A stretch of 37,719 nucleotides of DNA from Ignavibacteriales bacterium (GTDB lineage Bacteria > Bacteroidota > Ignavibacteria > UBA10030 > SZUA-254): contig JBBIRP010000001.1 of assembly GCA_037441745.1 (NCBI GenBank), forward strand, positions 1 to 37,719, in the 5' to 3' direction. Below, piece by piece: positions 1 through 25,957 of the stretch. Position numbers and translations under genes: made by a program. The stretch's first letter is position 1. Each line of letters begins with the position of its first letter. The notes under the pieces were generated by a model. The model was not told the DNA's origin. It searched no databases and saw nothing but the letters and a program-made list of their open reading frames with translations.

Positions 1-1226
1 TATGCACTGATTGCCACGGTGAACATAATATTTTACCACACGATGATCCATTATCCCGTATTGCACCCATAAATATATCGGGCCAGATCTGTACTCCATG
101 TCATAGTTCTGTAAAGTTGTCGGAGAAGTATGGAATTGCAAGCAATCGCATCGAAACATTTTCCGACAGCTACCACGGACTTGCCAACAAAGCTGGTTCA
201 ATTGAAGTAGCTAACTGCGCTAGCTGTCATGGTGTACATAATATTAAACCATCCAGTGATTCAACATCAACTATTAGCAAGCAGAATCTCGTTAAAACAT
301 GTGGCAAATGCCACCCGGGTGCAAATGAACGCTTTACAATAGGTTCAGTTCATAGCACGACTAAATCAAAACAAGAACCTTTACTCTATTGGATTGCTAC
401 GACCTATATTATTTTGATAATCGTTACCATTGGGGGAATGTTCATACACAATCTATTTGATTTTGTAAAAAAGTCGAAACGGAAGTTAATGATCCGACGT
501 GGTCTAATATCTGACAAGCATTACAGCATACAAATGTATCTCCGTATGTCATTAAATGAACGAATCCAGCATGGGGCATTATTTACAAGTTTTATAACAT
601 TAGTATTAACGGGTTTTGCATTAAAATTTCCTGATGCTTGGTGGGTTGTTCCAATTCGAAATGTAAGTCCACTAATATTTGAAATTCGTGGTATAGTACA
701 CCGCGTCGCTGCGGTTGTAATGGTACTTGCAAGTTTATACCATCTCTATTATATTCTTTTCGTTCCTCGAGGAAAACAGCTGATCAAAGATTTATTACCT
801 ACAACGAAAGACATTAACGACTTTATAAACGCATTGATGTATAACTTTGGAGCAAACCAATTCAAACCAAAATTTGGTAGATTTAGTTACATCGAGAAGG
901 CTGAATATTGGGCCTTAGTTTGGGGTACTATCGTTATGACAGTCACTGGAACCATTCTTTGGTTTGATAACACCTTCATGGGACTTCTTACAAAATTAGG
1001 ATGGGACGCAGCTCGAACTATTCATTATTACGAAGCCTGGCTTGCAACATTAGCAATAATAGTTTGGCATTTTTATTTTGTAATATTCAACCCCGATGTT
1101 TATCCAATAAATCTCGCATTTTGGAAGGGAACTCTTACCGAAGAAGAGATGATGGAAGAACATCCACTTGAGCTTGAACAGATCAAACGAGAAGAATTTA
1201 AAAAGTCTACTGATGCTGAAATCTAA
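1..1226 (+). CDS. Multihaem c-type cytochrome fused to a C-terminal FdnI/HydC-type cytochrome b membrane domain (CbcL-like inner-membrane quinol oxidoreductase). The 5' end lies upstream of the window.
   Basis: The frame of ORF 117-1226 is open from nt 3 (translation CTDCHGEHNILPHDDP...). Four CxxCH motifs are in the window: CTDCH, CTPCH, CASCH, CGKCH. A TM helix follows (LLYWIATTYIILIIVTIGGMFI), then four helices with conserved His (ERIQHG; IVHRVAAVVMVLASLYHLYY; RTIHYYEAW...VWHFYF). It is clearly paralogous to ORF 3233-4084. Confidence 0.8.
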   Translation, partial: CTDCHGEHNILPHDDPLSRIAPINISGQICTPCHSSVKLSEKYGIASNRIETFSDSYHGLANKAGSIEVANCASCHGVHNIKPSSDSTSTISKQNLVKTCGKCHPGANERFTIGSVHSTTKSKQEPLLYWIATTYIILIIVTIGGMFIHNLFDFVKKSKRKLMIRRGLISDKHYSIQMYLRMSLNERIQHGALFTSFITLVLTGFALKFPDAWWVVPIRNVSPLIFEIRGIVHRVAAVVMVLASLYHLYYILFVPRGKQLIKDLLPTTKDINDFINALMYNFGANQFKPKFGRFSYIEKAEYWALVWGTIVMTVTGTILWFDNTFMGLLTKLGWDAARTIHYYEAWLATLAIIVWHFYFVIFNPDVYPINLAFWKGTLTEEEMMEEHPLELEQIKREEFKKSTDAEI

Positions 1227-3252
1227 TTTTACGCTTCTACATGTGAAAAAATCATTCCTTTTTAGTTTTTCACTCACGCTTTTAATTTTTTGCACAAATC
1301 TAAAAAGTTCTTCACAAGAAAATAGTGTGTGTTTTTCTTGCCACAATGATAAATCATTGAAGGGTACACGCAAAGGGAAAACGTTTTCAGTTTTTATTGA
1401 TGAGAAAAAATTCTCCAATTCAGTACATGGTTCATTGACTTGTATCTCTTGTCATGTTGATTTAGAAGGAAAGGAACTTCCACATGATGAAGATTTAGCA
1501 CCTGTCAATTGTGGTAATTGTCATACATCGGAGTACGAACAGCATGAGAGCTCACTCCATGGAAAAGCTTTGTTAAAAGGTGATCAACTTGCCCCACATT
1601 GTTATGATTGCCACGGTAAGCACGATATACTATCAGCAAAAGACCCTAATTCACCGATAACACCATTAAAAATTCCGTTTCTTTGTGGCAAGTGTCATCA
1701 AGAGGGGGCGCCAGTACAACAACAGCGAATTATCCACCAAGATCACATCATTGAAAACTTTTCCGAAAGTATTCACGGCGAAGGATTGCTAAGAAAGGGA
1801 CTAATCGTAGCTCCGAGTTGCGTATCATGCCACACAGCCCATTCGATTTTACCTCATACCGAACCTTCTTCTTCAATATCCAGAAAAAATATTGCTTCAA
1901 CATGCAGTAAGTGCCATGCAGAAATAGAAATTGTCCACCGCAAAGTGATAAAAGGAGAATTGTGGGAAAAGCAAGCGCATGTTTTACCCGCCTGCGTAGA
2001 TTGCCATCAACCACATAAAATCAGAAAAATATTTTACGATCAAGGAATGGCTGACCGTGATTGTATGACGTGCCACGAAAAACTCGATATCAAGTCTTCC
2101 AAAGATGGGCGTTCACTTTATGTCAAGTACACAACGTTGAAACTTTCGCGACACTTGAATATTGCATGTAGCCAATGTCATTCAGAAGTAAATGCTTCCC
2201 ACTCACGTCCTTGCGATGCAATTACCAAGCAAGTCGATTGCTCTGCATGTCATGCTGAAATTGGAAATCAATATTTAAAAAGTATTCATGGACAGTATTT
2301 CACTAAGAACGACCTAAACGCACCATCGTGTAAAGAATGTCACGGAACTCATAGTGTTCTGGGAAAAACAGACCCAAAATCACCAACATTCCCAACAACC
2401 GTACCTAAGTTATGTGCTCGGTGCCATCGCGAAGGTCAAAAAGCCGCAGTCCGATATTCAGGCGATGAACACCAGATCATTGAACATTACACTGAGAGCA
2501 TCCACGGTAAAGGTTTAATAAAAAGTGGATTAACAGTAACTGCTATGTGCACAAATTGCCATACTGCACACAATGTGTTACCACATACTGACACTGCTTC
2601 GAGCATTAATCCTAAAAATCTTCCAACAACTTGCGGTAAATGTCACCATGGAATCGAAGAACAGTTCAGACAAAGCATTCATTCTAAACTTGTTGGAAAA
2701 ACTGATAAAGAATTACCTGTATGCGCTGATTGTCATAGTGCGCACACAATACGTAGAGCAGATGAAACTGGTTTTAAACTTGACATTATGCAAAAATGCG
2801 GAAGATGCCATGAAGATATAGCAAAAACTTATTTCGATACTTATCATGGTAAAGTTTCTCAGCTTGGATATACAAAAACTGCTAAATGCTATGATTGTCA
2901 CGGTGCACACGATATATTACCGATTTCAGATCCAAAATCACATTTAAGTCGTGAAAACGTAGTTAGAACATGCCAGAAATGTCATCCAGGAGCTACTCGC
3001 AGATTTGCCGGTTATCTAACTCACGCAACACACCACGACCCGAAGAAATATCCGTTTCTTTTTTGGACATTCTGGGGTATGACTGCACTCTTGATTGGAA
3101 CATTCATACTTGGGGGAATACACACACTCCTGTGGCTACCACGCGCTTTAAAAATGCAACGAAAGTTAAAAGAATTATCTAAGAATACGGTAAAAAATAA
3201 AAATCAAGAAATCTCGGAAGTAAAGAAAGACGATGGAAAAAACAATGAATAA
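1213..3252 (+). CDS. 19-haem c-type cytochrome built of doubled-CXXCH modules, with an N-terminal signal peptide and a C-terminal TM anchor
   Basis: I counted 19 exact CxxCH motifs in the translation. I prefer the ATG at 1213 (MLKSNFTLLHVKKSFLFSFSLTLLIF...SSQ, signal-like) over the track start at 1168; it overlaps the upstream stop by 14 nt. The C-terminus has a hydrophobic helix, FLFWTFWGMTALLIGTFILGGIHTLLWL, followed by a basic tail. Confidence 0.9.
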   Translation: MLKSNFTLLHVKKSFLFSFSLTLLIFCTNLKSSSQENSVCFSCHNDKSLKGTRKGKTFSVFIDEKKFSNSVHGSLTCISCHVDLEGKELPHDEDLAPVNCGNCHTSEYEQHESSLHGKALLKGDQLAPHCYDCHGKHDILSAKDPNSPITPLKIPFLCGKCHQEGAPVQQQRIIHQDHIIENFSESIHGEGLLRKGLIVAPSCVSCHTAHSILPHTEPSSSISRKNIASTCSKCHAEIEIVHRKVIKGELWEKQAHVLPACVDCHQPHKIRKIFYDQGMADRDCMTCHEKLDIKSSKDGRSLYVKYTTLKLSRHLNIACSQCHSEVNASHSRPCDAITKQVDCSACHAEIGNQYLKSIHGQYFTKNDLNAPSCKECHGTHSVLGKTDPKSPTFPTTVPKLCARCHREGQKAAVRYSGDEHQIIEHYTESIHGKGLIKSGLTVTAMCTNCHTAHNVLPHTDTASSINPKNLPTTCGKCHHGIEEQFRQSIHSKLVGKTDKELPVCADCHSAHTIRRADETGFKLDIMQKCGRCHEDIAKTYFDTYHGKVSQLGYTKTAKCYDCHGAHDILPISDPKSHLSRENVVRTCQKCHPGATRRFAGYLTHATHHDPKKYPFLFWTFWGMTALLIGTFILGGIHTLLWLPRALKMQRKLKELSKNTVKNKNQEISEVKKDDGKNNE

Positions 3253-4084
3253 ATCAACTGAAAAAGAATATCTTCGTTTTTCAAGATTGAATAGAATTCT
3301 TCACGTCTGCATGATTGTAAGTTTTCTAAGTTTAGCACTCACAGGTATGACATTAAAATTTTCATATACAAATTGGGCCGTTGTTTTATCGCACTTCTTT
3401 GGTGGTTTCGAAACCGCCGGATTCATACACCGATTTGCTGCTATAATAATGTTCGGAGTTTTTTTTAGTCATCTTTACGACCTCAGACGTAGAAAACGTA
3501 CTGAATTCGGTACATGGAGAAAAATGCTATTTGGTAATGACACAATGCTGTTTAATAAAAAGGATATAAAAGATCTTATCGGCAATTTTAAGTGGTTTCT
3601 TGGATTAGGACCGCGCCCAAAATTCGGACGATGGACATATTGGGAAAAGTTTGATTATTTTGCAGTTTTTTGGGGAATAACTGTAATTGGTTCCACAGGC
3701 TTAACTCTTTGGTTCCCCGAATTCTTCACACTTTTTTTACCTGGTTGGTTTATTAATGTCGCTACGATCATACATAGCGATGAGGCACTTCTAGCGACTG
3801 GTTTTATTTTTACTGTACACTTTTTCAATACACACCTTCGTCCAGAAAAATTCCCAATGGATATAGTTATCTTTACTGGAAGAATGCCGTTAGAAGAGTT
3901 TAAACGAGATAAGCCAGGCGAATTTGAGGAACTCCTAAAAAAAGGCGAACTTGAAAATTATCTCGTTGATTCATATCCGCCAATAGTTATTCGTACCATT
4001 CGCATATTTGGATGGATTGCATTAACGATCGGGTTTAGTATTATAATCTGGATTGTATATGCAATGATATTTGTTTACCGTTAA
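3233..4084 (+). CDS. Membrane cytochrome b subunit (FdnI/HydC, Ni_hydr_CYTB-like), partner of the 19-haem cytochrome
   Basis: Four hydrophobic helices carry conserved His: RILHVCM; FIHRFAAIIMFGVFFSHLY; ATIIHSDEALLATGFIFTVHFFNTH. It aligns by eye with the C-terminal half of ORF 1-1226 (LTG..LKF, IHR.AA, PKFGR.[ST]Y.EK, TG..LWF, IH..EA.LAT). An alternative start at ATG 3245 forms an ATGAATAA start/stop overlap with the upstream gene. Confidence 0.8.
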   Translation: MEKTMNKSTEKEYLRFSRLNRILHVCMIVSFLSLALTGMTLKFSYTNWAVVLSHFFGGFETAGFIHRFAAIIMFGVFFSHLYDLRRRKRTEFGTWRKMLFGNDTMLFNKKDIKDLIGNFKWFLGLGPRPKFGRWTYWEKFDYFAVFWGITVIGSTGLTLWFPEFFTLFLPGWFINVATIIHSDEALLATGFIFTVHFFNTHLRPEKFPMDIVIFTGRMPLEEFKRDKPGEFEELLKKGELENYLVDSYPPIVIRTIRIFGWIALTIGFSIIIWIVYAMIFVYR

Positions 4085-4176: not shown

Positions 4177-5667
4177 ATGAAACGGATTTTTCCACCTTCA
4201 TTCTACAATCTTACAACACTTGTAGGTGCATCAATTGCATCGGTTAGTTTGGGACTAATCGTTTTTCTGACGATCATTGAATTATTTTCAACCGAACAAA
4301 AACCGTACATGGGAATAATAGCATTTGTAATTTTACCTGCCTTCCTTTTATTGGGTATTCTTCTAATTTTTCTTGGTATAATCAGAGAACATCGGCTTGA
4401 ACGCAAAGGTAAACCTCATGGTCTTCATTTTCCGCAAATCGATTTAAATAACCCTCGACACCGAACTGCTTTCACGTTCTTTTCGATCGGAGGAATTTTG
4501 TTATTAATGTTCTCAGCTTTTGGTAGTTTTAAAGCATACGAATATACCGACTCAGACAATTTTTGCGGTGAAACTTGTCATAAGGTGATGTATCCCGAGT
4601 TTACGGCATATCAATATTCTCCTCACGCTCGTGTTGGGTGCGTCCAATGCCATATCGGTCCAGGCGCAACTTGGTTTGTGCGTTCAAAACTCTCAGGCGC
4701 ATATCAGGTCTATGCGACTATATTCAATAAATATCCACGTCCAATTCCAACACCAATTCAAAATCTACGACCAGCGCAAGAAACCTGTGAACAATGTCAT
4801 TGGCCCAAGCATTTCTTCAGTGAAAAACAACATGTAAATACATATTATTTGAGCGACGAAAATAATACAAAATGGACGCTGAATCTGCTAATGAAAATTG
4901 GAGGAGGTAACATCGAAGCTGGCCCAACATCAGGAATTCATTGGCACATGAATATCGCACACGAAGTTACCTATGCTGCGATAGATTCTCAACGTATGAT
5001 TATCCCTTGGGTAAAAGTTAAAGACCCTGACGGCAAAGAAAGAATTTATCGAAGTACGGAAATAGAGATAACAGAAGATAGTTTAGCAAAAGTCGAAAAG
5101 CGTAGAATGGACTGTATTGATTGCCACAATCGACCTAGCCACATTTATCATCCACCTGCAAGATCTGTAAATCACTTAATGTCGCTTGGGTGGATCGATC
5201 CAGAATTACCTTCCATTAAGAGCATTAGCGTTAAAGTTTTAGAATATCCATATACTACAAACCAGACAGCTTTGGATAGTATAAAATCGGAAATCGAAGA
5301 ATATTACAAATCAAATTATCCAGAAGTATACAAAAATAACGCCATCGAAAAAACGATAACTGAATTGCAGAAAGTTTATAGTCGAAATTACTTCCCAGAA
5401 ATGAAAATTAACTGGAAAAGGTACCCAGAGCATATCGGTCATCTTTATGCACCTGGATGTTTTAGATGTCACGATGGAAAACACATTAATAATGATGGTA
5501 AGGTTCTTTCTAAAGATTGTAATCAGTGCCATACGATTCTCGCTCAACATTTTGAAAAACAAAAAGAGCGTATTTCATTGAGTGGTGTAGAATATGTTCA
5601 TCCTGTTGATATAGGTGATGCATGGAAAGAGACAAACTGTAGTGAGTGTCATGCCGGCGAACAGTGA
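4177..5667 (+). CDS. Inner-membrane NapC/NirT-type multihaem cytochrome with three N-terminal TM helices and 7 haem motifs (ImcH-like)
   Basis: Three hydrophobic helices lie in the first ~115 aa. The NapC/NirT-like signature follows: FCGETCHKVMYPEFTAYQYSPHARVGCVQCH. There are six CxxCH motifs (CVQCH, CEQCH, CIDCH, CFRCH, CNQCH, CSECH) plus one CxxxCH (CGETCH). This architecture matches published descriptions of Geobacter ImcH. Confidence 0.78.
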   Translation: MKRIFPPSFYNLTTLVGASIASVSLGLIVFLTIIELFSTEQKPYMGIIAFVILPAFLLLGILLIFLGIIREHRLERKGKPHGLHFPQIDLNNPRHRTAFTFFSIGGILLLMFSAFGSFKAYEYTDSDNFCGETCHKVMYPEFTAYQYSPHARVGCVQCHIGPGATWFVRSKLSGAYQVYATIFNKYPRPIPTPIQNLRPAQETCEQCHWPKHFFSEKQHVNTYYLSDENNTKWTLNLLMKIGGGNIEAGPTSGIHWHMNIAHEVTYAAIDSQRMIIPWVKVKDPDGKERIYRSTEIEITEDSLAKVEKRRMDCIDCHNRPSHIYHPPARSVNHLMSLGWIDPELPSIKSISVKVLEYPYTTNQTALDSIKSEIEEYYKSNYPEVYKNNAIEKTITELQKVYSRNYFPEMKINWKRYPEHIGHLYAPGCFRCHDGKHINNDGKVLSKDCNQCHTILAQHFEKQKERISLSGVEYVHPVDIGDAWKETNCSECHAGEQ

Positions 5668-5707
5668 AAATATTTAATTAGAAAAATAGATTAGGAAAGG
5701 AAAATTG

Positions 5708-6448
5708 ATGCAAAAATTTTTCTCAAAATTCCCAGATGCATTTATAAGAATCGGTCTTCTTTTTGCAGGATTGGTAGCATTAATTATTATAATACGTGGT
5801 TTGTTACCACCTGAAATTAAAAAAACAGAGATACATAAAAAATCTACAGTCGATAGGGAAATTGCAAAACCAATAAATTATGCTGGTTCAAATGTTTGCG
5901 GCAATTGTCATGAAGAATCAAACATAAAAAGTACAGGTTATCATAGAAATTTATCTTGCGAGACTTGCCATGGGGCAGCAAAAGAACATTCCGAAAACCC
6001 ATCTGATGTGAAACCGCAAATACCAAGACAACGTGAATTCTGCACACATTGTCATAATTATGATATGTCGAGACCGACTGGTTTTCCACAAATTAATCCA
6101 ATTGCGCACAATCCATTGAAACCTTGTGTAACTTGCCACAATCCACATGATCCTAAACCACCAACCACACCTCAGGAATGTCAAGCATGTCATGCAGAAA
6201 TAGCAAGGACAAAAGCAATATCATATCATGTTATGGTAGAGTGTACGACTTGCCATAGAGTAAAAGTTGAACATAAGTTGGCACCACAAATCATAAAAGC
6301 AACTATACCATCTGATAAGATATTTTGTGCGAGATGTCACTCAAAAGAATTGTCTACAAAAGGGATATCAAATATAGATTTTACCTCACATTATGAGAAA
6401 TATATGTGTTGGCAATGTCATGATCCACATAATCCGGAGATTGAATAA
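5708..6448 (+). CDS. Octahaem c-type cytochrome with an N-terminal membrane anchor
   Basis: Eight CxxCH motifs: CGNCH, CETCH, CTHCH, CVTCH, CQACH, CTTCH, CARCH, CWQCH. The N-terminal helix is IRIGLLFAGLVALIIIIRGLL. I prefer the ATG at 5708 over the TTG at 5705; a purine-rich aggaaaggaaaa lies upstream. Confidence 0.85.
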   Translation: MQKFFSKFPDAFIRIGLLFAGLVALIIIIRGLLPPEIKKTEIHKKSTVDREIAKPINYAGSNVCGNCHEESNIKSTGYHRNLSCETCHGAAKEHSENPSDVKPQIPRQREFCTHCHNYDMSRPTGFPQINPIAHNPLKPCVTCHNPHDPKPPTTPQECQACHAEIARTKAISYHVMVECTTCHRVKVEHKLAPQIIKATIPSDKIFCARCHSKELSTKGISNIDFTSHYEKYMCWQCHDPHNPEIE

Positions 6449-6450
6449 AT

Positions 6451-7191
6451 ATGAATAGAAGAAATTTCATAAACAAATTTATGAAGCAACTTGCATCCAT
6501 AAGCATTATAAATGGTTTTACAAAGAAAGCACACGCAACCCCAAATAGTTACGATGCCTCGAAACATTATTATGAAATGGGAATACAGGTTGATAAATGT
6601 ATCGGGTGTGGTACTTGCATGGATGCCTGTAAAATAGAAAATGATGTCCCAAAAGAACCGTTTTTCTTTAGGACGTGGGTGGAACGCTATATTATAAAAA
6701 AAGATCGTAGTGTTCAGGTCCAAAATATCAAAGGATGGACTGGTGAATTAACCGAAAAAACCACCGAGGCAGACGTTCTAAGAAGCTTTTTTGTTCCAAA
6801 GTTATGCAATCAATGCGATAACCCTCCCTGTGTCCAAGTTTGCCCGGTTGGTGCAACTTTCAAAACGGAGGATGGAGTAATTTTAGTCGATGATACACGT
6901 TGCATAGGTTGCAGGTATTGTATTCAAGCTTGTCCTTATGGTGCTCGATTTTTACATCCAGAAAAGAGTACCGCTGAAAAATGCACATTTTGTTATCATC
7001 GAATTACAAAAGATTTGTTACCTGCTTGCGTTGAAGTTTGCCCAACGCAAGCAAGAATATTCGGAGACCAAAAAAGTCCTGCAAGCCCTCTTAATAGGTT
7101 CAAGCATAGAAGCAAAATTCATGTTTTAAAACCAGCATTAAATACTGAACCCAAAGTATATTATTCAAATCTTGACGGAGAAGTTCGATGA
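6451..7191 (+). CDS. Tat-exported NrfC/HmcB-type ferredoxin subunit with four [4Fe-4S] motifs
   Basis: Twin-arginine motif MNRRNFINKF. The four Cys clusters are CIGCGTCMDAC, CNQCDNPPCVQVCP, CIGCRYCIQACP and CTFCYHR...ACVEVCP. The gene starts 2 nt after the upstream stop. Confidence 0.9.
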   Translation: MNRRNFINKFMKQLASISIINGFTKKAHATPNSYDASKHYYEMGIQVDKCIGCGTCMDACKIENDVPKEPFFFRTWVERYIIKKDRSVQVQNIKGWTGELTEKTTEADVLRSFFVPKLCNQCDNPPCVQVCPVGATFKTEDGVILVDDTRCIGCRYCIQACPYGARFLHPEKSTAEKCTFCYHRITKDLLPACVEVCPTQARIFGDQKSPASPLNRFKHRSKIHVLKPALNTEPKVYYSNLDGEVR

Positions 7192-8402
7192 CCCCAATTA
7201 TTGAACATTTAACTGAGTTAGCAAAACAAGTTTCTGGGTATATCTATCCGAATGAAATTGAAATCCATTGGTCAATACTGATTGTCGTTTATCCATATGT
7301 GACTGGCTTAGTTGCTGGGGCTTTTATCCTCGCATCACTTGTAAAAATATTCAATGTTAAAGAGGTTCAATCTGTTTATCGTCTCTCGCTATTGACAGCA
7401 TTAGCATTTTTATTAGTAGCACCACTACCTTTATTGCTTCATCTCGGCCACCCAGAACGTTCATACGAAATTTTCTTAAACCCAAATCTAAGTTCAGCAA
7501 TGGCAATGTTTGGATTCGTGTATACTTGGTACCTTATGGTCGTCTTACTACTTGAGATTTGGTTCACTTATAGGAAAGATTTGGTTCTCTTATCTCAAGA
7601 AGAAAAATTCCCAATGAACTGGATACACAAAATTGTCGTTTTATTTTCAAGAGATACAAGTGAGAGAGGAACTAATTTTGATAAAAAGGTTCTGAAGATA
7701 ATAACCATCATTGGTATTCCATCTGCATTTTTACTTCATGGTTATGTTGGGTTCATCTTTGGCTCAATCAAAGCAAATCCATGGTGGAGTAGCGTGTTAA
7801 TTCCTATAGTCTTTTTATTCTCTGCGATTGTCTCCGGCATAGCACTTGTGATTTTTTTATATATGATAATAACAACCTACCGAGGTGAACAAATTGATAT
7901 GGGCTGTCTTGATAAAATGGCTTCATACCTTTTTTATGCTGTTATTGTAGATTTTTCACTTGAGATGCTCGATTTTATACATCGTTTATACGAGAGCGAA
8001 GAGTCTATTCATATTTTATCTGAGCTAGTAATGAACAAACTTTTTATCAGCCTCGGTATCATTCAAGTTTTATTGGGTATGATTATACCATTGGGGATAA
8101 TGATTTCTATAAAATTGTTGAAAGTTGAAGCCGAACTTAGAAAATTATTATATTTTGTTTCAATAATACTTATTCAGATTGGAATTTTCGCCACAAGATG
8201 GAATGTTGTGATTGGAGGCCAGATGTTCTCAAAAAGTTTTAGAGGGTTAACCGCATATAAAATGGAACTTGGTGGTATTGAAGGCTTACTTGTTGCTCTG
8301 GGTGTGCTTGTACTGCCGTTCATTATACTCACGATCTTATTCAAAATATTCCCACCCTGGGAGTATAGAAAGAAGAACATCGTTGTTGAAACAGCAAACT
8401 AA
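7188..8402 (+). CDS. NrfD/PsrC-family polytopic membrane quinone-interacting subunit
   Basis: 404 aa, highly hydrophobic with 8-10 predicted helices. ATGA overlap with the upstream FeS gene. Its position after an NrfC-like gene is the classic NrfCD arrangement. Confidence 0.85.
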   Translation: MTPIIEHLTELAKQVSGYIYPNEIEIHWSILIVVYPYVTGLVAGAFILASLVKIFNVKEVQSVYRLSLLTALAFLLVAPLPLLLHLGHPERSYEIFLNPNLSSAMAMFGFVYTWYLMVVLLLEIWFTYRKDLVLLSQEEKFPMNWIHKIVVLFSRDTSERGTNFDKKVLKIITIIGIPSAFLLHGYVGFIFGSIKANPWWSSVLIPIVFLFSAIVSGIALVIFLYMIITTYRGEQIDMGCLDKMASYLFYAVIVDFSLEMLDFIHRLYESEESIHILSELVMNKLFISLGIIQVLLGMIIPLGIMISIKLLKVEAELRKLLYFVSIILIQIGIFATRWNVVIGGQMFSKSFRGLTAYKMELGGIEGLLVALGVLVLPFIILTILFKIFPPWEYRKKNIVVETAN

Positions 8403-8426
8403 CTTTTTTTAATTAGGAAATATATT

Positions 8427-11421: not shown

Positions 11422-11521
11422 ACAAATTTAAGAAAATATTACGTCGAAAAAAATCAAAAACTAAGAAATATTAATCATCGTTTGTTGCTTTTTTGATTTT
11501 ATTTTACGAAATTAAAAGTTA

Positions 11522-11791: not shown

Positions 11792-11802
11792 GGAGTAACA
11801 AT

Positions 11803-12963: not shown

Positions 12964-12977
12964 ATAAGAACTAGCAA

Positions 12978-13484
12978 ATGAGAAAATACATTAAATTTAT
13001 AATAAGTATAATTCTAATCTTATTATTCACCTTCATGGCAATCCCATTTGCAGAAGATAAAATTGTTCAACCAATCAATTTCAATCATAAAGTTCATCTT
13101 GAAAACGCGGGATTAAATTGTACTGACTGCCATGTAAATGTAGAAAAAAATGCCCGTGCAATAATACCTTCAATTGAGATTTGTAAAAATTGCCATAGCG
13201 AAAACCCAATATCAAATTCACCAAATGAAAAAGATTTGATTAAATATATTGTTGAGAATAAAGAAATACCTTGGAATCAAATATATAGGGTACCAGATCA
13301 TGTATATTTCTCCCATCGCCGGCATGTAGCAATCGGCGAGCAAAATTGTTCAAAGTGTCACGGCGATATGGCTGATAAAACAACGCCGGTTACGCACCAG
13401 GAAATTCCTATAACAATGAATAACTGTTTAGATTGCCATAGGCAACAAAAAGTGACTAATGATTGTCTTGCATGCCACCGTTGA
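12978..13484 (+). CDS. Membrane-anchored pentahaem c-type cytochrome (ActA/QrcA-like)
   Basis: N-terminal helix IKFIISIILILLFTFMAIPFA. Five CxxCH motifs: CTDCH, CKNCH, CSKCH, CLDCH, CLACH; the last is at the extreme C-terminus. It sits directly upstream of the MopB/FeS/NrfD genes. Confidence 0.8.
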   Translation: MRKYIKFIISIILILLFTFMAIPFAEDKIVQPINFNHKVHLENAGLNCTDCHVNVEKNARAIIPSIEICKNCHSENPISNSPNEKDLIKYIVENKEIPWNQIYRVPDHVYFSHRRHVAIGEQNCSKCHGDMADKTTPVTHQEIPITMNNCLDCHRQQKVTNDCLACHR

Positions 13485-13497
13485 CTTAAAATAATTT

Positions 13498-15954
13498 ATG
13501 GAAATAACACGACGGGATTTCATTAAATTGTTGGGGGGTATTTCGAGTACAATTGCTCTTAATGGTTGTACCTTAGATGATGTTTTTGAGATACCCGAAA
13601 AATTTATCAATAGAATTAAATCTGGACCTGGCATTGAGAAATGGAAAAACACCATATGCGGATTATGCCCGGGCGGATGTGGTATACGCGTTCGTTTAAT
13701 AGATGATATTCCGGTATATGTTAAAGGAAACCCGACCTATCCTGTAAACCAAGGAGGAATGTGCCCGCTGGGTCTTAATGCTTTACATCATCTCTACCAT
13801 CCCGATCGTATAAAAGGTCCAATTAAAAGAATCGGTAACCCGGGTAGCAACAAATGGGAAGCAATTAGTTGGGATGAAACATTAAAATTTATTGCAGACA
13901 ACCTAGTTAAGCTTCGCAATGAAGGTAAATCTCATCAGGTTGCATTCCTCGGTTACGAAGAACGCGGTTTAATGCATCAACATATAAAAAGATTCTTGCG
14001 ATCATATGGCTCACCAAACTATTTTCAATTCTCTCCAAACCAAAATGATACTATTCCATATTTACTTGTACAAGGAAATTCTAAAGTTCCTTCGTATGAT
14101 TTTCTAAACGCAAAACTTATATTAAGTTTTGGATATAATTTTTTAGAGGGAGGTTATTCTCCCATCTATTACACAAAACTTTACAGTCATCATAGAGAAA
14201 CCCAAACGATTTACATTCAAATTGAACCAAGAATGAGTCTCACTGGATCTAATGCAAATAAATGGATACCCATACGGCCAGGAACTTATGGAGCATTGGC
14301 GCTAGGAATTGCTTATGTCTTAATTAGAGAGGAACTCTATAATAAAGAATTTGTAAAAAAATACACATTCGGTTTCGATGATTGGACCGACTTTAATGGT
14401 ATCAAACACTTAGGATTTAAGAATCTTGTACTCGGTAATTATTATCCTGAAAGAGTGACAGAGATAACTGGTATACCCAGTTCAACCATTCTAGAAATTG
14501 CCCGCGATTTTGGTAACACACAACCATCAATAGCCATCGGTGGTAATGGAGCAATTGACAATACCAACGGTACATTCAGCATGATGGCTATTCACAGCCT
14601 AAATGCACTTATTGGAAATTTTGAAAAAAATGGTGGTATATTCTCCATCGATGATCCATCATTTTCAAAACTACCAGAGATTTATGAAGATTTAATTGCG
14701 AAAAATGGTAATAAACAGGAACGAATTGACAAATCTCAAGACGAAAAATTTTTCTTATCCACTTTCTCAATTGAGAGCTTTACAAATAACATTCTTTCTG
14801 ATAAACCTTACCCGTTAAGCATGTTATTTATTTACAATGGAAATCCTCTATTTGAATCTTTAAACCACTCAGAAGTCACCAAAGCACTACAAAAAATTCC
14901 CCTTATAATAAGCTTCGATAGTATAAGAAACGAAACTAGTGAGTATGCACATCTAATTCTACCAGACCATACATTCCTCGAAACGTGGGATGAAGTTTCC
15001 AATGTCCCATCTGTAGGATTTACTCATGTTGGAATACAACAACCTGTGATTGACCCACTATATGATACTAAACAAGTTGGAGATGTGCTTATTAATTTAG
15101 CAAAAAGAATTGGCGGCATGGTTGCTGAATCTTTCCCCTTCGAAAAATATGAAGACTTTCTAAAAAATTCTTTAAAAGGAATTTACGAATCAGGTAAAGG
15201 TGCTATTACCTCTGAAGGCGTCAAAGGTTTATGGTTGGAATATCTACATCAAAGAGGTTGGCACATCGGTCGGTACAATTCATTCGAAGAATTTTGGGAT
15301 CAATTACTAGAAAATGGTGGTTGGTGGAATCCAATCAAAAAAGAAAAAACTCTTGATAAATTTTTCTCAACCACTTCAGGTAAATTTGAGTTTTATTCAA
15401 CCAGATTAAAAAATCAAATTGAAAATCTTGTTGAAAAATCTAGGGGACCTAAATTCTCTCAAAATATGGAACTAATATTAAACAAATTAAATATTACAGC
15501 AAGAGGAGACAGTATTTTTCTTCCACATCACGAACCAGTTCCTTACAATCAGGATTTACCTCTACACCTTGTTACGTTCAACGTTTTAACAAATCCCTCG
15601 GGTCGTGCAGCTCATTTACCACTAATGCAAGAAATGTTCGGTTATATGGTAAGGCAGTACTGGGATTCATGGATTGAAATCAACACCAAAACAGCAAGTG
15701 AGCTCGGAATATCTGATAATTCATGGGTCTGGGTAGAATCTTCAACATCAAGCATAAAAGTTCGTGCAAAATTAAGTCCTGCGATTTCACCAAACGTTGT
15801 TGCAATTCCTTTTGGATTGGGGCATACATCTTACGGTAGATATGCACGAAATCATGGTATTAATCCATATTCGATTATGAGAAATACATACGATTGTATA
15901 AATGGTAGGTCTGCATTAGAAGGAACAAAAGTAAAGATTTCAAAGGCTGTATAA
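13498..15954 (+). CDS. Tat-exported molybdopterin-oxidoreductase-family (MopB) subunit of Psr/ACIII/Qrc type. The FS0 Cys motif is present but no Cys is seen at the expected Mo-ligand position.
   Basis: Tat motif TRRDFIKLLGG. FS0 motif C-x2-C-x3-C-x27-C (CGLCPGGC...GGMCPLG). By hand alignment to ORF 21041-23230, SFAQCRGPR corresponds to SPNQNDTIP, so the Cys ligand is absent. Confidence 0.82.
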   Translation: MEITRRDFIKLLGGISSTIALNGCTLDDVFEIPEKFINRIKSGPGIEKWKNTICGLCPGGCGIRVRLIDDIPVYVKGNPTYPVNQGGMCPLGLNALHHLYHPDRIKGPIKRIGNPGSNKWEAISWDETLKFIADNLVKLRNEGKSHQVAFLGYEERGLMHQHIKRFLRSYGSPNYFQFSPNQNDTIPYLLVQGNSKVPSYDFLNAKLILSFGYNFLEGGYSPIYYTKLYSHHRETQTIYIQIEPRMSLTGSNANKWIPIRPGTYGALALGIAYVLIREELYNKEFVKKYTFGFDDWTDFNGIKHLGFKNLVLGNYYPERVTEITGIPSSTILEIARDFGNTQPSIAIGGNGAIDNTNGTFSMMAIHSLNALIGNFEKNGGIFSIDDPSFSKLPEIYEDLIAKNGNKQERIDKSQDEKFFLSTFSIESFTNNILSDKPYPLSMLFIYNGNPLFESLNHSEVTKALQKIPLIISFDSIRNETSEYAHLILPDHTFLETWDEVSNVPSVGFTHVGIQQPVIDPLYDTKQVGDVLINLAKRIGGMVAESFPFEKYEDFLKNSLKGIYESGKGAITSEGVKGLWLEYLHQRGWHIGRYNSFEEFWDQLLENGGWWNPIKKEKTLDKFFSTTSGKFEFYSTRLKNQIENLVEKSRGPKFSQNMELILNKLNITARGDSIFLPHHEPVPYNQDLPLHLVTFNVLTNPSGRAAHLPLMQEMFGYMVRQYWDSWIEINTKTASELGISDNSWVWVESSTSSIKVRAKLSPAISPNVVAIPFGLGHTSYGRYARNHGINPYSIMRNTYDCINGRSALEGTKVKISKAV

Positions 15955-15970
15955 GTGAAGGAGAATTAGA

Positions 15971-16654
15971 ATGCCAAAATGGGCAATGGTAATAGATCTT
16001 GATAAATGTACTGGTTGCGGTGCTTGCATAGCGGCATGCAAATTAGAAAATAATATTGCTATCGTAGCTCCCGCAGAAGCACAAAACGGACGTGTAATGT
16101 TTTGGTTAGATATAATTAGTTCATATGAAGGTGAGTATCCTGCTGTTAAGGTAAATCGGATACCAAAACCGTGTTTTCATTGCGACGATCCACCATGTAT
16201 TAAAGTATGTCCAGTCGGCGCAACGTACAAAAACGAAGAGGGTTTAGTGGGACAAATCTATCACCGATGCATTGGATGCCGATATTGCATGGCTGCCTGT
16301 CCGTATACCTCAAAAGTTTTCAATTGGGAAAAACCAAGATGGCTTGATGATACTTATTCTTGTTTTAATCCAGACGTTTCATTACGTATGGTAGGTGTTG
16401 TCGAGAAGTGTTCTTTTTGCGCCCATAGGTTGATCAAGATAAAAGAGAATGCAGCTCAGGAAAAGAGAGCAATTCGTGATGGAGAATATATCCCGGCTTG
16501 CATGGAAAACTGTCCGGCGGATGCTATTTACTTCGGAGACATAGATAATAAAGAAAGTGTTGTTCATAACCTCGCTCATAACTTTAGGGCTTACAGAATT
16601 ATGGAAGATTTAGGAGTCGAACCAAAAGTTTATTATCTTTCTAAAAAGTTTTAA
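15971..16654 (+). CDS. Four-cluster [4Fe-4S] ferredoxin subunit (PsrB/ActB2/QrcC-like)
   Basis: Cys motifs CTGCGACIAAC, CFHCDDPPCIKVCP, CIGCRYCMAACP and CSFCAHR...ACMENCP. It has no signal peptide of its own, which fits co-export with the Tat-bearing MopB partner. RBS aaggag upstream. Confidence 0.9.
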   Translation: MPKWAMVIDLDKCTGCGACIAACKLENNIAIVAPAEAQNGRVMFWLDIISSYEGEYPAVKVNRIPKPCFHCDDPPCIKVCPVGATYKNEEGLVGQIYHRCIGCRYCMAACPYTSKVFNWEKPRWLDDTYSCFNPDVSLRMVGVVEKCSFCAHRLIKIKENAAQEKRAIRDGEYIPACMENCPADAIYFGDIDNKESVVHNLAHNFRAYRIMEDLGVEPKVYYLSKKF

Positions 16655-16672
16655 ACAAGTAAATATTTAGAT

Positions 16673-17989
16673 ATGATAGAAAAAGACGAACAAATATTCA
16701 AACCAATATACCAAACAGGTAAAGGTTTTTACATAACATCCGTGATCTTGTTAATGATTATTGCTTGGTCGCTCAATATGTACATAAAACAAGTTTGGTA
16801 TGGACTTGGTGTTACAGGTATGAATCAACCAGTAACGTGGGGTTTCTATATTGTTAACTTTGTATTTTTTATTGGAATAAGTCATGCGGGAACATTGATT
16901 TCTGCAATATTACGGTTATCGAAAGCTGAATGGCGACGACCGATTACTAGAATGGCAGAAGTTATTACAGCAATTGTATTAGCAATTGGAGGCCTTCATC
17001 CAATTATTGATTTAGGACGACCAGATAGATTGTTAAATATTTTTCAATCTGGTAGATTACAATCACCATTATTATGGGATGTTACCAGTATTACTGCTTA
17101 TTTCACTGCAAGTACAGTGTATCTTTATATTCCAATGATTCCCGATATAGCTCGGATTCGGGATCGCGGTGGTAAGCTTAAATGGCTGTATACTTTCATG
17201 GCATGGGGATATCAAGGAACCGAACGTCATAAACGCGTGTTAAATAGAGCGATAAACATTTTAATGGTAATGGTTATACCAATAGCGGTTTCTGTACACA
17301 CTGTGATCTCTTATATTTTTTCAATGACACTTCAGCCAGGATGGCATAGCACAATCTTTGGTCCATACTTTGTAGTAGGTGCAATTTTTTCCGGAATCGC
17401 AGCCCTTTTAATAGTTATGATTGCTTTCAGAAAATTCTATCATCTTGAAAAATATCTTAGGGAAATCCACTTCCAATATTTAGGCACATTACTTTTGATT
17501 ATGTCAATTATTTGGTTCTATTTCACATTCTCCGAATATCTCACCGGAATATTTGGTGCAGAACCACACGAAGTTCAAATAATCATGTATAAATTTACAG
17601 GACCATTCGCTGTCTTTTTCTGGTCAATGGTATTATGTAATTTTATGATACCTGTAATAGTCCTAAGCTTTAAAAAATTTAAAACAATTACAGGAATTTT
17701 TATCGCCTCTTGTACTGTAGTTGTTGGAATGTGGTTGGAACGCTTGGTAATCGTAGTACCATCGTTAGCAAATCCGAGACTTGAACTTCCAATGGGAATA
17801 TATATACCTACATTAACTGAATGGTCATTATTTGCCGGAGGTATTTCAGTTTTTATTCTAGGTTACATGCTCTTCTCAAAATTTTTTCCAATTATTTCGA
17901 TATGGGAAGTCGAAGAAGGCCGTACAGAGGGGCTAAAAGAAGTTGAGGAAAGAATACACAGCTATTTACCAGCCATTTCAAATCATTGA
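16673..17989 (+). CDS. NrfD-family polytopic membrane subunit, long form (ActC/QrcD-like)
   Basis: 438 aa with about 10 hydrophobic helices. It follows the MopB and FeS genes, which is the CISM/ACIII gene order. Confidence 0.85.
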   Translation: MIEKDEQIFKPIYQTGKGFYITSVILLMIIAWSLNMYIKQVWYGLGVTGMNQPVTWGFYIVNFVFFIGISHAGTLISAILRLSKAEWRRPITRMAEVITAIVLAIGGLHPIIDLGRPDRLLNIFQSGRLQSPLLWDVTSITAYFTASTVYLYIPMIPDIARIRDRGGKLKWLYTFMAWGYQGTERHKRVLNRAINILMVMVIPIAVSVHTVISYIFSMTLQPGWHSTIFGPYFVVGAIFSGIAALLIVMIAFRKFYHLEKYLREIHFQYLGTLLLIMSIIWFYFTFSEYLTGIFGAEPHEVQIIMYKFTGPFAVFFWSMVLCNFMIPVIVLSFKKFKTITGIFIASCTVVVGMWLERLVIVVPSLANPRLELPMGIYIPTLTEWSLFAGGISVFILGYMLFSKFFPIISIWEVEEGRTEGLKEVEERIHSYLPAISNH

Positions 17990-18060
17990 AAATTTTTCTA
18001 CTCTGACACGAAATCTTTAATAATTTAAAAAATAAACATCATAAATAGAAAATTAATAAT

Positions 18061-20295
18061 ATGAATTTAGGTCAAATAAGTATTTTAATTGCTTTTACTG
18101 CATCGCTTGGTGCAGTGATTACTTTCATTAGAAACGAACGATTGATAAACAATCAAAAACAAATTGGCAAAACAAAAATTCATTTTCAGTTTTACTATCT
18201 ATCTGTACTCTTTGGTTTAATAGCTTCAGTTATATTATTCTATTCGATACTTAATCATCAGTTCCAATACTCTTATGTTGTAAAATATAGTTCAAGAGAT
18301 TTACCTTTGATCTACTTAATCTCTGCGTTTTGGGCTGGACAAGAGGGAACATTTTTACTCTGGGCTGTATGGGTAAGTTTTATGGGAATAGTTTTTATTA
18401 AGAAATCAAACGGTACTGATAACTATGCGATAGCAGTTGTAAGCGCTTTTATTGCATTCCTTTATCTTATACTTTTAGTTAAAAGTCCATTCGAAATAAT
18501 TACACCAATTCCTCCAGACGGGCAGGGTCTAAATCCATTATTACAAGATCCGTGGATGGCAATTCATCCACCCATTCTTTTCCTTGGATATGCAGCTACA
18601 ACTTTCCCATTTGCCCTCATAATCTCCGGATTAGCAAGAGGAAATTACTCGAACTGGTACCAATTTGGTTTTTCCTGGTCACTCTTTGCCTCTTTGGCAC
18701 TCGGTGCTGGCATAACGATCGGCGGCTTTTGGGCTTATGAAGTTCTTGGTTGGGGAGGTTACTGGGGATGGGATCCCGTTGAAAATTCCTCACTTGTTCC
18801 CTGGATATCAACACTTGTTTTAATTCACGGATTCGTTGTGTTTAGAGCAAAAGGTTCTCTGCAAAGAACAAACATGTTCATGGCAATTATTGGTTTCATC
18901 CTAGTCTTATACGCCACATTCCTAACTCGCAGCGGAATTCTAGCTGATTTCTCAGTTCACTCATTTGTCGACCTGGGCATCAATAATTATCTAATTGGTA
19001 TTATGATTGTGAGTATTGTGGTTGGCCTTGGTTTATTTGTAAAAAGATTTAGAGAAATTAAATCACCTAAGATAGATACTTCGAGTTTCAATAGAGAATT
19101 ATTACTGTTATTGAGTATGTATGTTCTAGGTGCTGCTGCTTTGTTTACGTTTGTTGGTATGTCGTCTCCAATTATTACAGGATTTATAGGAAAAGCTTCT
19201 CAAGTTGACGTTTCGTTTTACAATAAAGTGAATCTGCCAGTAGCAATCATAATGGCGATCCTTCTTGGAATTACACCACTTCTCGGTTGGATAGAAGATA
19301 GAAAGATTACAATTCTGAAAAGATATTCATTATCTTTAATACTTACTGTATTGTCTTGCGTAATTGCATACGTTGCAGGTGTAACGTCACCAGTTTTACT
19401 TTTATTTGTTGGAGCTGCTGTATTTGCATTGATTTCAAATGTTATCATAATTTTCAGACAGTATCGTGTTGGGTGGTTGCATATAGGTGGCCCACTATCA
19501 CATATCGGTATCGCACTATTGTTAATTGGGATTATTGGTTCAGGCAGTTACGACGAATCCAAACAACTCATACTTAAGCAGAACGAGACTCAATCAATCT
19601 ATGGATATAATTTTACATTTAAAGGTATATCCAACCCACAAGCACTTAAACCTATAATGAACATTGAGGTTTCTGACGGTAAAAATTCATTCCTTGCGCA
19701 ACCAAAACTTTATTTCAGCCAATATAACCAAGCCATGATGAGAGAACCAGATATAAAAGTATTACCACTTAAAGATTTATATATTTCACCTCTTGAGTTA
19801 CAACAATTGGGCTTACCGGGCAATCACAATCCAATGATAGAAATTGCAAAAGGTGAAACAAAAGAAATATTGGGATATAAAATAACTTTTATAAAATTCG
19901 ATGTCGGCCAGCATGCAGAAACTGGTGCAATGTCTGTCGGGGCTGTATTGAATGTCGAATCAGAAAACATTAACAACAGTGTTGTACCTTTACTTACTTT
20001 CGACGAAAAAGGGAATCGAAAACCTATTCCTGCCGAATTACCAATCTTATCTAGTTTTTCCAATCAAGGGCTCAAACCACACGTAACTTTAGATGCTTTA
20101 AGCGTAGAAGAAAAGAAGATTTTATTAGAGTTTCATGGTTTTACTTCGCCTCATCAGGGGATAGAACAAACACAAGCATTAGTTGTTGATGTAAGCATTA
20201 AACCATTGATGATGGTAGTTTGGACTGGAGTAATATTAATAATACTTGGAACACTGATAGCCTGGCGAAGAAGAATGCTTCGAAAAATGGAATGA
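18061..20295 (+). CDS. ccmF: CcmF/NrfE-family cytochrome c haem lyase (System I type)
   Basis: Signature motifs: WAGQEGTFLLW; HPPILFLGY (conserved His); and the Trp-rich WWD motif GGFWAYEVLGWGGYWGWDPVENSSLVPW. 744 aa and polytopic, with a large soluble domain before the last TM helix. Confidence 0.85.
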   Translation: MNLGQISILIAFTASLGAVITFIRNERLINNQKQIGKTKIHFQFYYLSVLFGLIASVILFYSILNHQFQYSYVVKYSSRDLPLIYLISAFWAGQEGTFLLWAVWVSFMGIVFIKKSNGTDNYAIAVVSAFIAFLYLILLVKSPFEIITPIPPDGQGLNPLLQDPWMAIHPPILFLGYAATTFPFALIISGLARGNYSNWYQFGFSWSLFASLALGAGITIGGFWAYEVLGWGGYWGWDPVENSSLVPWISTLVLIHGFVVFRAKGSLQRTNMFMAIIGFILVLYATFLTRSGILADFSVHSFVDLGINNYLIGIMIVSIVVGLGLFVKRFREIKSPKIDTSSFNRELLLLLSMYVLGAAALFTFVGMSSPIITGFIGKASQVDVSFYNKVNLPVAIIMAILLGITPLLGWIEDRKITILKRYSLSLILTVLSCVIAYVAGVTSPVLLLFVGAAVFALISNVIIIFRQYRVGWLHIGGPLSHIGIALLLIGIIGSGSYDESKQLILKQNETQSIYGYNFTFKGISNPQALKPIMNIEVSDGKNSFLAQPKLYFSQYNQAMMREPDIKVLPLKDLYISPLELQQLGLPGNHNPMIEIAKGETKEILGYKITFIKFDVGQHAETGAMSVGAVLNVESENINNSVVPLLTFDEKGNRKPIPAELPILSSFSNQGLKPHVTLDALSVEEKKILLEFHGFTSPHQGIEQTQALVVDVSIKPLMMVVWTGVILIILGTLIAWRRRMLRKME

Positions 20296-23230: not shown

Positions 23231-23232
23231 TC

Positions 23233-25956: not shown

Positions 25957-25957
25957 A

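Follow-up and report, generated by a model that had tools for sequence, protein, structure and literature searches.

What does the cytochrome-rich start of an Ignavibacteriales contig do for the cell that carries it? The stretch analysed, hereafter the window, comprises all 37,719 nucleotides (nt) from positions 1 to 37,719 of contig JBBIRP010000001.1 (GenBank assembly GCA_037441745.1), and an earlier interpretation made from the letters alone (the sequence-only reading) had seen in its first 20,295 positions a respiratory island with 58 c-haem sites and six quinone-pool modules, a potential-tuned battery of menaquinol-to-periplasm electron exits. We find that the island is a modular variant of known electron-export parts and no new kind of system, built around a core of Rieske protein, cytochrome b and an 11-haem cytochrome, and that its best-supported role, towards which we lean with some reserve, is the oxidation of quinol for electron export. 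From the window start to position 20295 the plus strand holds 17 tightly packed open reading frames (ORFs), lettered here A to P and CcmF, as follows.

3 to 1226, plus strand (A): 3' part of a putative CbcL-like fusion, cut by the window start; four CXXCH sites and a HydC/FdnI-type dihaem cytochrome b domain

1168 to 3252, plus strand (B): 19-haem cytochrome c, CbcA-like subunit; 19 CXXCH sites and a single C-terminal transmembrane (TM) helix at about residues 630-658

3233 to 4084, plus strand (C): dihaem cytochrome b, CbcB-like; overlaps the 19-haem gene by 20 nt

4177 to 5667, plus strand (D): ImcH-like inner-membrane cytochrome of about 496 amino acids (aa); three TM helices, one CX3CH site and then six CXXCH sites

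5705 to 6448, plus strand (E): octahaem cytochrome c with an N-terminal membrane anchor (TM helix 12-30); eight CXXCH sites

6451 to 7191, plus strand (F): periplasmic 4x[4Fe-4S]-type subunit with a twin-arginine (TAT) signal (N-terminus MNRRNFINKF); Fer4_11, 94.8 bits

7188 to 8402, plus strand (G): NrfD-family membrane quinone-binding subunit; PF03916, 141.9 bits

8427 to 8888, plus strand (H): Rieske 2Fe-2S protein; PF00355, 48.4 bits, motifs CTHLDC and CACHNGKY

8885 to 9964, plus strand (I): cytochrome b with fused b6-like and subunit-IV-like parts; PF00033, 174 bits, PF00032, 45.8 bits, PEWY motif

9961 to 11421, plus strand (J): 11-haem cytochrome c with a C-terminal membrane helix (TM 459-477), in the place of c1/f; 11 CXXCH sites

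11522 to 11791, plus strand (first gene of the K-P block): 89-aa protein with two membrane helices by hydropathy

11803 to 12963, plus strand: four tandem class I (monohaem) cytochrome c domains behind a signal peptide; PF00034, 110 bits over four stretches, four CXXCH sites

12978 to 13484, plus strand: pentahaem cytochrome, ActA/QrcA-like, with an N-terminal anchor; matches ActA of alternative complex III (ACIII), 8k9e_A, 88 bits, E 4e-24

13498 to 15954, plus strand: molybdopterin-family subunit of 818 aa with a TAT signal and FS0 cysteines; PF00384, PF04879, PF01568

15971 to 16654, plus strand: 4Fe-4S subunit like the ActB C-terminal domain and QrcC; R. marinus ActB 797-1024, 196 bits, E 7e-57

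16673 to 17989, plus strand (last gene of the K-P block): ActC-like NrfD-family membrane subunit; ACIII ActC chains 8k9e_C, 6f0k_C and 6btm_C

18061 to 20295, plus strand: CcmF/NrfE-family haem lyase, the last operon gene; PF01578, 108 bits, PF16327, 92 bits, both above cut-off

20341 to 20363, plus strand: terminator-like hairpin of 8 bp, 5 of them GC, followed by the T tract TTTTTTATTT, 46 nt past the CcmF stop

Domain calls were made by Pfam and NCBIfam profile scans of the window proteins with the family cut-offs applied. The haem sites lie in seven c-type cytochromes, all on the plus strand, and our motif count agrees with the 58 reported before (57 CXXCH and one CX3CH): 4 in 3-1226, 19 in 1168-3252, 6 CXXCH plus the CX3CH in 4177-5667, 8 in 5705-6448, 11 in 9961-11421, 4 in 11803-12963 and 5 in 12978-13484. 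When the residues of the same seven proteins were shuffled, a mean of 0.36 motifs appeared (maximum 3), and none was found in the other 4653 aa of the window ORFs or in the minus-strand frames. The count of six quinone-pool modules was also correct; profile searches recovered the proposed NapC/NirT-type anchor, both NrfD subunits and the Rieske/cytochrome b pair, and the island does end in a CcmF-type lyase (PF01578, PF16327) and a terminator (20341-20363). What the sequence-only reading had not seen was that the first gene is truncated by the window edge, and it had passed over the two 4Fe-4S subunits (6451-7191, 15971-16654), the 89-aa two-helix protein and the 818-aa molybdopterin-family protein. 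Junctions throughout the island are overlaps or gaps no longer than 100 nt, and a single terminator-like hairpin stands 46 nt past CcmF, on which grounds the island is probably a single transcription unit; the remaining terminator-like scan matches within it are intragenic and no more numerous than expected from shuffling. Colinearity with the closest relative among the loci described below (L004) extends through 20374, past the hairpin. G+C content is 33-40% throughout the window (about 35% overall), and an Rfam scan of the window gave no match.

The gene at 4177-5667 fits the published definition of the ImcH family, as far as sequence criteria can place it. ImcH proteins have three N-terminal TM helices, a CX3CH site adjoining the membrane domain and then 5-9 CXXCH sites (PMC6295460); here hydropathy peaks at 16-34, 47-65 and 98-116 mark three N-terminal helices, CX3CH stands at 130, and CXXCH follows at 155, 204, 313, 428, 448 and 488, the same layout as in the listed Ignavibacteria ImcH homologue PIP78050.1 (129/153/202/311/428/448/488; PMC6295460). 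The NapC/NirT-like region scores 45.2 bits with PF03264 (Cytochrom_NNT; cut-off 24.1), and NrfH matches among PDB sequences (2j7a_C, E 1.5e-4); searches of the PDB turned up no solved structure of ImcH or CbcL. The haem-1 pocket of Geobacter sulfurreducens ImcH comprises H137, K173, Q179 and Y188 (bioRxiv 10.1101/2023.05.03.539133), and H135, K171, Q177 and Y186 of the window protein repeat the spacing of GSU3259, a comparison made by spacing and not by alignment. Across 56 ImcH-like homologues K171, Q177 and Y179 never vary, and conservation of Y186 is 88%. The length of about 496 aa, the NapC/NirT-like region, the CX3CH first site with six CXXCH and the Lys/Gln/Tyr pocket are thus shared with GSU3259; unlike the monocistronic imcH of Geobacter (PMC4251993), the gene lies inside a 17-gene operon, and its likeness is judged by published criteria and spacing. 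Its matches are 69-87% identical and, where named, come from Ignavibacteria, Ignavibacteriales or Bacteroidota metagenome-assembled genomes (MAGs), the best 120 database matches being all Ignavibacteria-type. The non-proteobacterial origin proposed for the stretch is borne out by these 69-87% identical proteins in Ignavibacteriales MAGs, by the 35% G+C and by the tail of a type IX secretion system (T9SS) substrate.

Both units that combine c-haems with a dihaem cytochrome b display the CbcL/CbcBA architecture, in support of the sequence-only reading. The CbcL/MtoC/MtrH family carries an N-terminal periplasmic domain with 3-23 CXXCH sites (PMC6295460). In the first unit at least four sites remain in the truncated gene (its full-length orthologues in L004 and L060 have 722-725 aa and 13 CXXCH) and in the second 1168-3252 has 19; both b domains are of the HydC/FdnI dihaem type with membrane histidines, five of them invariant in each. 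Two such b domains had been claimed, and for the first the claim holds outright (PF01292 48.2 bits, cut-off 30.1; His190, 233, 247, 341 and 356 invariant across 45 orthologues); the second (3233-4084) reaches only 27.1 bits, below the cut-off, but at E 4e-6 and with TIGR01583 at E 2.5e-9, and His24, 66, 80, 181 and 196 are invariant across 37 orthologues. The type of the first gene is absent from Table S2 of PMC6295460. The haem positions of the 19-haem protein (55, 92, 115, 145, 173, 218 and so on) match two Ignavibacteria proteins of 944-952 aa, and that table names OGU58019.1 (952 aa, fused) and OGV21847.1 as CbcL/MtoC/MtrH homologues (Zhong and Shi); by sequence, the 19-haem gene and its cytochrome b would be a split form of these published homologues.

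The split is a natural gene fission. Among 36 loci the 19-haem gene and the cytochrome b are fused in six (L013, L015, L035, L036, L046 and L048) and separate in 30, often as overlapping ORFs whose frame offsets and gaps vary, a pattern that also ruled out a programmed frameshift joining 1168-3252 to 3233-4084. Because fused and split forms occur as six against 30 in the same set, CbcL-type and CbcBA-type architectures interconvert inside one orthologous group. As in CbcL (GSU0274), MtoC, MtrH and Geobacter CbcBA, a periplasmic multi-haem c domain is joined to a HydC/FdnI-type dihaem b, and in the two-gene version the haem subunit, with its one C-terminal helix, stands beside a separate b subunit, the CbcBA form described in bioRxiv 10.1101/2023.05.03.539133. 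Unlike CbcL (9 haems) and CbcA (7), the units here have 13 and 19, and unlike in Geobacter a fused and a split unit stand side by side in a single operon.

The three genes from 8427 to 11421 are predicted to form a Rieske/cytochrome b complex in which cytochrome c1 is replaced by a membrane-anchored 11-haem cytochrome. A Rieske protein and a cytochrome b with a Qo motif, as in bc1 and b6f complexes, are present with PF00355, PF00033 and PF00032 all above their cut-offs (the cytochrome b6 model gives 243 bits, below its cut-off of 325); in the core there is no monohaem c1 or f subunit, its third gene being the 11-haem cytochrome. This gene directly follows cytochrome b in 82 of 83 related loci, and the exception (L066) stops at a contig edge. 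No fewer than 588 species genomes encode a relative of the cytochrome b; the 80 best are all Ignavibacteria-type, at 69-83% identity. Multi-haem c partners of early anaerobic bc complexes, Caldithrix included, have been discussed (PMC5317091), and the core resembles those complexes in its Rieske 2Fe-2S motifs, PEWY Qo motif and multi-haem cytochrome in place of c1/f. Unlike them, it has an 11-haem, C-terminally anchored subunit, it is the constant core of an accreting Ignavibacteria cluster and it is directly followed by a porin-cytochrome conduit in one third of species.

That accretion was seen by comparing the window proteins with the 83 related loci by tblastn, 45 species loci among them having about 10 kb on both sides. 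With A for 3-1226, B and C for 1168-4084, D for the ImcH-like gene, E-F-G for 5705-8402, H-I-J for the core and K-P for 11522-17989, the shared gene order across the 83 loci is A-B-C-D-(E-F-G)-H-I-J-(K..P)-CcmF, and the elements occur in the fully flanked loci as follows.

Rieske/cytochrome b/11-haem core: 45 of 45 loci

ImcH-like gene: 36 of 45 loci

CbcL-like gene: 34 of 45 loci

19-haem/b pair: 23-24 of 45 loci

Octahaem/FeS/NrfD module: 4 of 45 loci

ACIII-like block: 2 of 45 loci

Any CcmF gene: 15 of 45 loci

One locus (L060) has the complete architecture of the window. The closest relative, L004, shares its CcmF, terminator and MerR-Psr neighbourhood and is without both rare modules, which blastn against L004 delimits as insertions with clean boundaries (5653-8465 and 11432-18033). 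At the other extreme, the three-gene core of L050 stands alone among tryptophan-synthesis and other housekeeping genes, and seven other full-flank loci are also core-only. Upstream of the cluster, relatives carry a sigma-54-type response regulator, a universal stress protein and a c554-like tetrahaem cytochrome, joined in L003 by a PAS histidine kinase. The strict sigma-54 promoter pattern TGGCAC-N5-TTGCW is missing from nearly all loci. A weaker, sigma-54-like -24/-12 element, GGCAT-N5-TTGT (GGCATATCTTTTGTGA), lies upstream of the universal stress protein gene in L001 (about 3570) and L004 (about 1500), is conserved between the two and adjoins the sigma-54-type response regulator. Between the c554-like gene of L004 and its CbcL-like gene, directly in front of the latter, lies a strong hairpin with a T tract (2697-2799).

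The two rare modules are themselves quinone-linked by their family resemblance. The first, E-F-G, resembles NhcABCD/NrfBCD-type systems in combining an octahaem cytochrome, a TAT-exported 4Fe-4S protein and an NrfD membrane subunit (5705-8402); unlike them, it reaches no curated family cut-off, the nearest being DsrO (187 bits for 6451-7191, cut-off 200), with TtrB at 220 bits also below its own. The NrfD subunit has no match among PDB sequences. The module presumably also resembles the Cbc4-type complexes of Geobacter. In L041, a MAG labelled Ignavibacterium album, it stands upstream of the CbcL-like gene and not between the ImcH-like and Rieske genes, which indicates that it moved as a unit.

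The second, the K-P block, is predicted to encode an ACIII/Qrc-type complex that falls in neither family as defined and that probably works as a quinol:cytochrome c oxidoreductase or in reverse. Its 89-aa protein, which has no Pfam family, is conserved at 52-71% identity in L031, L041, L045, L047 and L060. The 818-aa protein (B1) aligns end to end with ArrA (6cz7) at 279 bits, against 180 for PsrA and 68 for ActB, and the ArrA segment SSVCAEA with the molybdenum (Mo)-ligand cysteine falls at a gap. When ten members of the 818-aa protein's family are aligned with the PhsA-like protein that the window also encodes, the position of the PhsA cysteine is taken by N, Q, L or I within an unconserved flanking segment, and the FS0 cysteines C54, C57, C61 and C89 are invariant. 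The protein is therefore not a catalytic Arr, Psr or Phs subunit, and its candidacy as an arsenate, thiosulfate or polysulfide reductase was rejected. The membrane subunit matches ActC chains over nearly its full length (236-247 bits, E down to 4e-72). We also dropped the assignment of the block to Qrc: all four models stay under their cut-offs (QrcA 118 of 180, QrcB 301 of 440, QrcC 277 of 400, QrcD 32.5 of 570 bits) and the membrane subunit is ActC-like (247 against 32.5 bits for QrcD). As to the definition of ACIII, B1 and B2 are separate genes here and the block has no second NrfD (ActF).

In common with ACIII (ActABCDEF) and QrcABCD, the block has an ActA/QrcA-like pentahaem subunit, a molybdopterin-fold subunit lacking the Mo ligand and an FeS subunit resembling the ActB C-terminal domain and QrcC; with ACIII it further shares an ActC-like NrfD protein and class I cytochrome c, as in ActE. 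Like Qrc and unlike ACIII, it keeps B1 and B2 as separate proteins and has no ActF. Also unlike ACIII, its B1 is far nearer ArrA/PsrA than ActB and retains the FS0 cysteines and TAT signal, and its cytochrome c has four domains. QrcD has been reported from Deltaproteobacteria only (PMC8076601). It is conceivable that the block represents a surviving transitional form linking molybdoenzymes of the Psr/Arr type to ACIII/Qrc.

The outer-membrane side of a possible export route is found in relatives. L011 continues past the 11-haem gene with genes for a c554-like cytochrome, a 437-aa protein that matches no family, two further cytochromes of 14 and 11 haems, and a CcmF of a second type. Of the 83 loci, 26 encode homologues of this 437-aa protein (15 of the 45 fully flanked ones), placed downstream of the core or the K-P block except in L025, where they lie upstream; such loci have the c554-like tetrahaem cytochrome and the 437-aa protein, mostly then the 14-haem and often the 11-haem cytochrome. 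The predicted fold of a 93%-identical homologue is a 24-strand beta-barrel (mean pLDDT, the per-residue model confidence, 75.5), and each of its 50 best PDB matches is a barrel of the outer membrane (E about 1e-10). The porin-cytochrome (Pcc) type of I. album pairs a porin with a 14-haem periplasmic cytochrome of about 400 aa (IALB_1838; PMC4245776), and Pcc porins are reported in Ignavibacteriales MAGs and M. roseus (PMC6137239, PMC7399161). The relatives' loci are like the I. album Pcc (PMC4245776) in having a porin-like barrel and then a 14-haem cytochrome of about 400 aa; the direct linkage of such a conduit to the Rieske/cytochrome b and ImcH/CbcL cluster is not mentioned in the literature examined.

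The CcmF genes follow the extended clusters, occurring only beside those with ImcH/CbcL genes (15 of 37, against 0 of 8). The window's copy is divergent (293 bits with the NCBIfam subfamily model TIGR00353, cut-off 569), and its orthologues (56-76% identity) close the cluster in L001, L004, L006, L008, L009, L014, L025 and L051. The second-type CcmF of L011 is 35% identical to it. This paralogue (L011 17354-19654 and about 15 other loci, 33-37% identical to the window CcmF) closes Pcc-containing clusters, and the window type closes conduit-free ones. One possibility is that CcmF specialises in the CX3CH site or in very large cytochromes.

On the strength of architecture, family resemblance and recurrent conduit linkage, the last an association, we favour quinol oxidation in the service of electron export over the other readings, at slightly better than even odds. 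Inner-membrane complexes would link the menaquinone pool to periplasm-facing multi-haem cytochromes, the Rieske/cytochrome b/11-haem core having presumably accreted a CbcL-type fusion, a split CbcBA-type pair and an ImcH-family cytochrome, and further the octahaem/FeS/NrfD complex and the ACIII/Qrc-type complex with its Mo-less subunit and four-domain cytochrome c. The dedicated CcmF-type lyase probably matures this haem load. The complexes would most likely oxidise menaquinol and load electrons onto periplasmic haem wires, which may serve an outer-membrane porin-cytochrome conduit encoded elsewhere in the genome, so that the island would be the inner-membrane half of an extracellular electron-transfer pathway. 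Which way the electrons flow, what finally accepts them and whether the modules share the work by redox potential are matters of inference, and the phrase 'potential-tuned battery' is an analogy with Geobacter only.

A number of observations pull the other way. As the sequence-only reading had noted, the window has no porin-cytochrome conduit: tblastn with the L011 barrel and its two cytochromes found no homologue in it. The association of conduit and CcmF with ImcH/CbcL clusters (15/37 against 0/8, p = 0.038) is uncorrected for phylogeny. The core stands alone among housekeeping genes in some species and is therefore not specific to electron export. CHB1 (L018), which carries the cluster, is a nitrate-respiring peptide degrader of anammox granules (PMC5460018). 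Complexes of the ACIII/Qrc type serve soluble high-potential chains or reduce quinone and are not evident exporters of electrons, and the class I cytochrome c domains of the ACIII-like module suggest soluble partners of high potential. Finally, members of the CbcL/MtoC family are also known from Fe(II) oxidisers, and Qrc reduces quinone (PMC6295460, PMC8076601), so that the flow could also run inwards.

Much of this would suit a general periplasmic electron-distribution hub, in which the core is the lineage's complex III and accessory quinol dehydrogenases feed reductases of soluble acceptors (nitrite, N2O, arsenate, polysulfide/thiosulfate, or O2 via cbb3/caa3), with extracellular transfer at most a side use. 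The core-only organisation of L050 and the seven other full-flank loci, the cluster in CHB1 as a nitrate and N2O respirer, and the resemblance of the ACIII-like module with its four-domain class I cytochrome c to aerobic and denitrifying chains all fit, as does the Rieske/cytochrome b pair of Caldithrix abyssi, which stands without c1 in a Nap locus and was proposed to feed multi-haem carriers (PMC5317091). A Psr/Phs-like reductase operon also lies 296 nt downstream of the island (20592-26608). It contains a MerR regulator, a PhsA/PsrA-like molybdoenzyme (530 bits with the PhsA model, below cut-off, with the Cys ligand present), an FeS subunit, an NrfD protein, two half-size YeeE/YedE sulfur-transport proteins and a rhodanese. 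M. roseus has a locus laid out in this way, with a MerR-like gene at the head of a Psr/Phs-type operon, and arsenate induces it (PMC5492636). The sequence-only reading had named a flanking soluble-substrate reductase as grounds for giving up electron export, and such an enzyme is indeed there; however, because it has its own MerR gene and NrfD subunit and lies beyond the terminator, it forms a separate operon, a neighbour outside the island that does not by itself refute electron export, and its adjacency to the island is shared only with L004. The island operon itself holds no soluble-substrate reductase, the ORFs downstream of the core in six conduit-free loci are without haem motifs, so that no cytochrome gene follows there, and in a seventh, L050, a Pfam scan finds no reductase. 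One third of the related loci, moreover, continue into a porin-cytochrome conduit, and ImcH and CbcL have been implicated so far in extracellular electron transfer only (PMC4251993, PMC6295460). We therefore regard the hub as unlikely, though worth keeping in view.

It is more doubtful still that electrons run inwards, from extracellular or periplasmic donors (Fe(II), cathodes, reduced cytochromes) to menaquinone, as proposed for MtoC-type enzymes and shown for Qrc. The CbcL/MtoC/MtrH family does occur in metal reducers and oxidisers alike with no sequence feature that tells direction (PMC6295460), and Qrc, a relative of the sixth module, is a cytochrome c3:menaquinone oxidoreductase (PMC8076601). 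Yet ImcH has been implicated in quinol oxidation only (PMC6295460), quinol oxidation is the usual direction of a Rieske/cytochrome b complex, the Ignavibacteria in culture live as organotrophs on the reduction of Fe(III), arsenate and nitrite and are not Fe(II) oxidisers, and the membrane subunit of the sixth module is ActC-like (247 bits) rather than QrcD-like (32.5 bits). A gathering of independent cytochrome-rich complexes around a shared haem lyase, regulator and maturation needs, with no common pathway, is just as improbable, since the separately varying presence of the modules (E-F-G in 4 of 45, K-P in 2, B and C in 23-24, A in 34, D in 36), the displaced E-F-G of L041, the clean insertion boundaries against L004 and the restriction of CcmF to extended clusters are set against very short or overlapping junctions with a single terminator, which favour co-expression, and an A-B-C-D-H-I-J order that is the same in nearly all loci holding these genes.

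Within electron export, a tentative and rather unlikely version is coupled to the Q cycle: the proton-motive Rieske/cytochrome b complex would be the primary exit, passing electrons from the 11-haem cytochrome to a c554-like carrier and on to the conduit, and the ImcH-, CbcL- and CbcBA-type enzymes would be lower-yield bypasses for lower-potential acceptors. We know of no bc complex in the extracellular electron-transfer routes of Geobacter and Shewanella. Among the quinol oxidases of those genera, only ImcH is classed as electroneutral in the literature examined (bioRxiv 10.1101/2023.05.03.539133).

Beyond the Psr/Phs-like operon, a 423-aa protein (27460-28731) matches no family and looks like an outer-membrane protein, having a signal peptide, a strand-like pattern and Phe as its last residue; as a candidate for the missing conduit porin it was rejected, having no similarity to the Pcc barrel and no cytochrome neighbour. 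It precedes ZnuA-like and ABC-3 permease genes, and because of these the set (27460-30393) probably serves metal uptake. At 35008-37719 a large secreted protein runs off the window end, with a CotH kinase-like domain, BNR/Sortilin-type repeats and a T9SS C-terminal sorting domain.

Ignavibacteria homologues of ImcH and CbcL (PMC4251993, PMC6295460) and their Pcc clusters (PMC4245776) are already published, and the I. album genome paper scores that strain as without a Rieske/cytochrome b complex (PMC3362086). The searchable literature has gene-level mentions of the cluster only; in it we found neither the modular operon around the Rieske/cytochrome b/11-haem core nor the way it often runs on into Pcc, and likewise no pair of dedicated CcmF paralogues and no Mo-less ArrA-like/ActC-like complex.

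Sediments, aquifers, anode biofilms and wastewater reactors commonly harbour Ignavibacteria, which are suspected metal reducers and whose inner-membrane route to the cell surface had so far not been laid out. The locus and its 83 relatives bundle three Geobacter-type quinol oxidase families with a Rieske/cytochrome b complex, often running into a conduit, and so offer a concrete set of genes, open to testing, from which electron export beyond the Proteobacteria can be predicted and taken apart. They raise the question of whether a Q-cycle enzyme can couple to extracellular acceptors, and the Mo-less ArrA-like subunit with its ActC-like partner informs the origin of ACIII and Qrc from molybdoenzymes.

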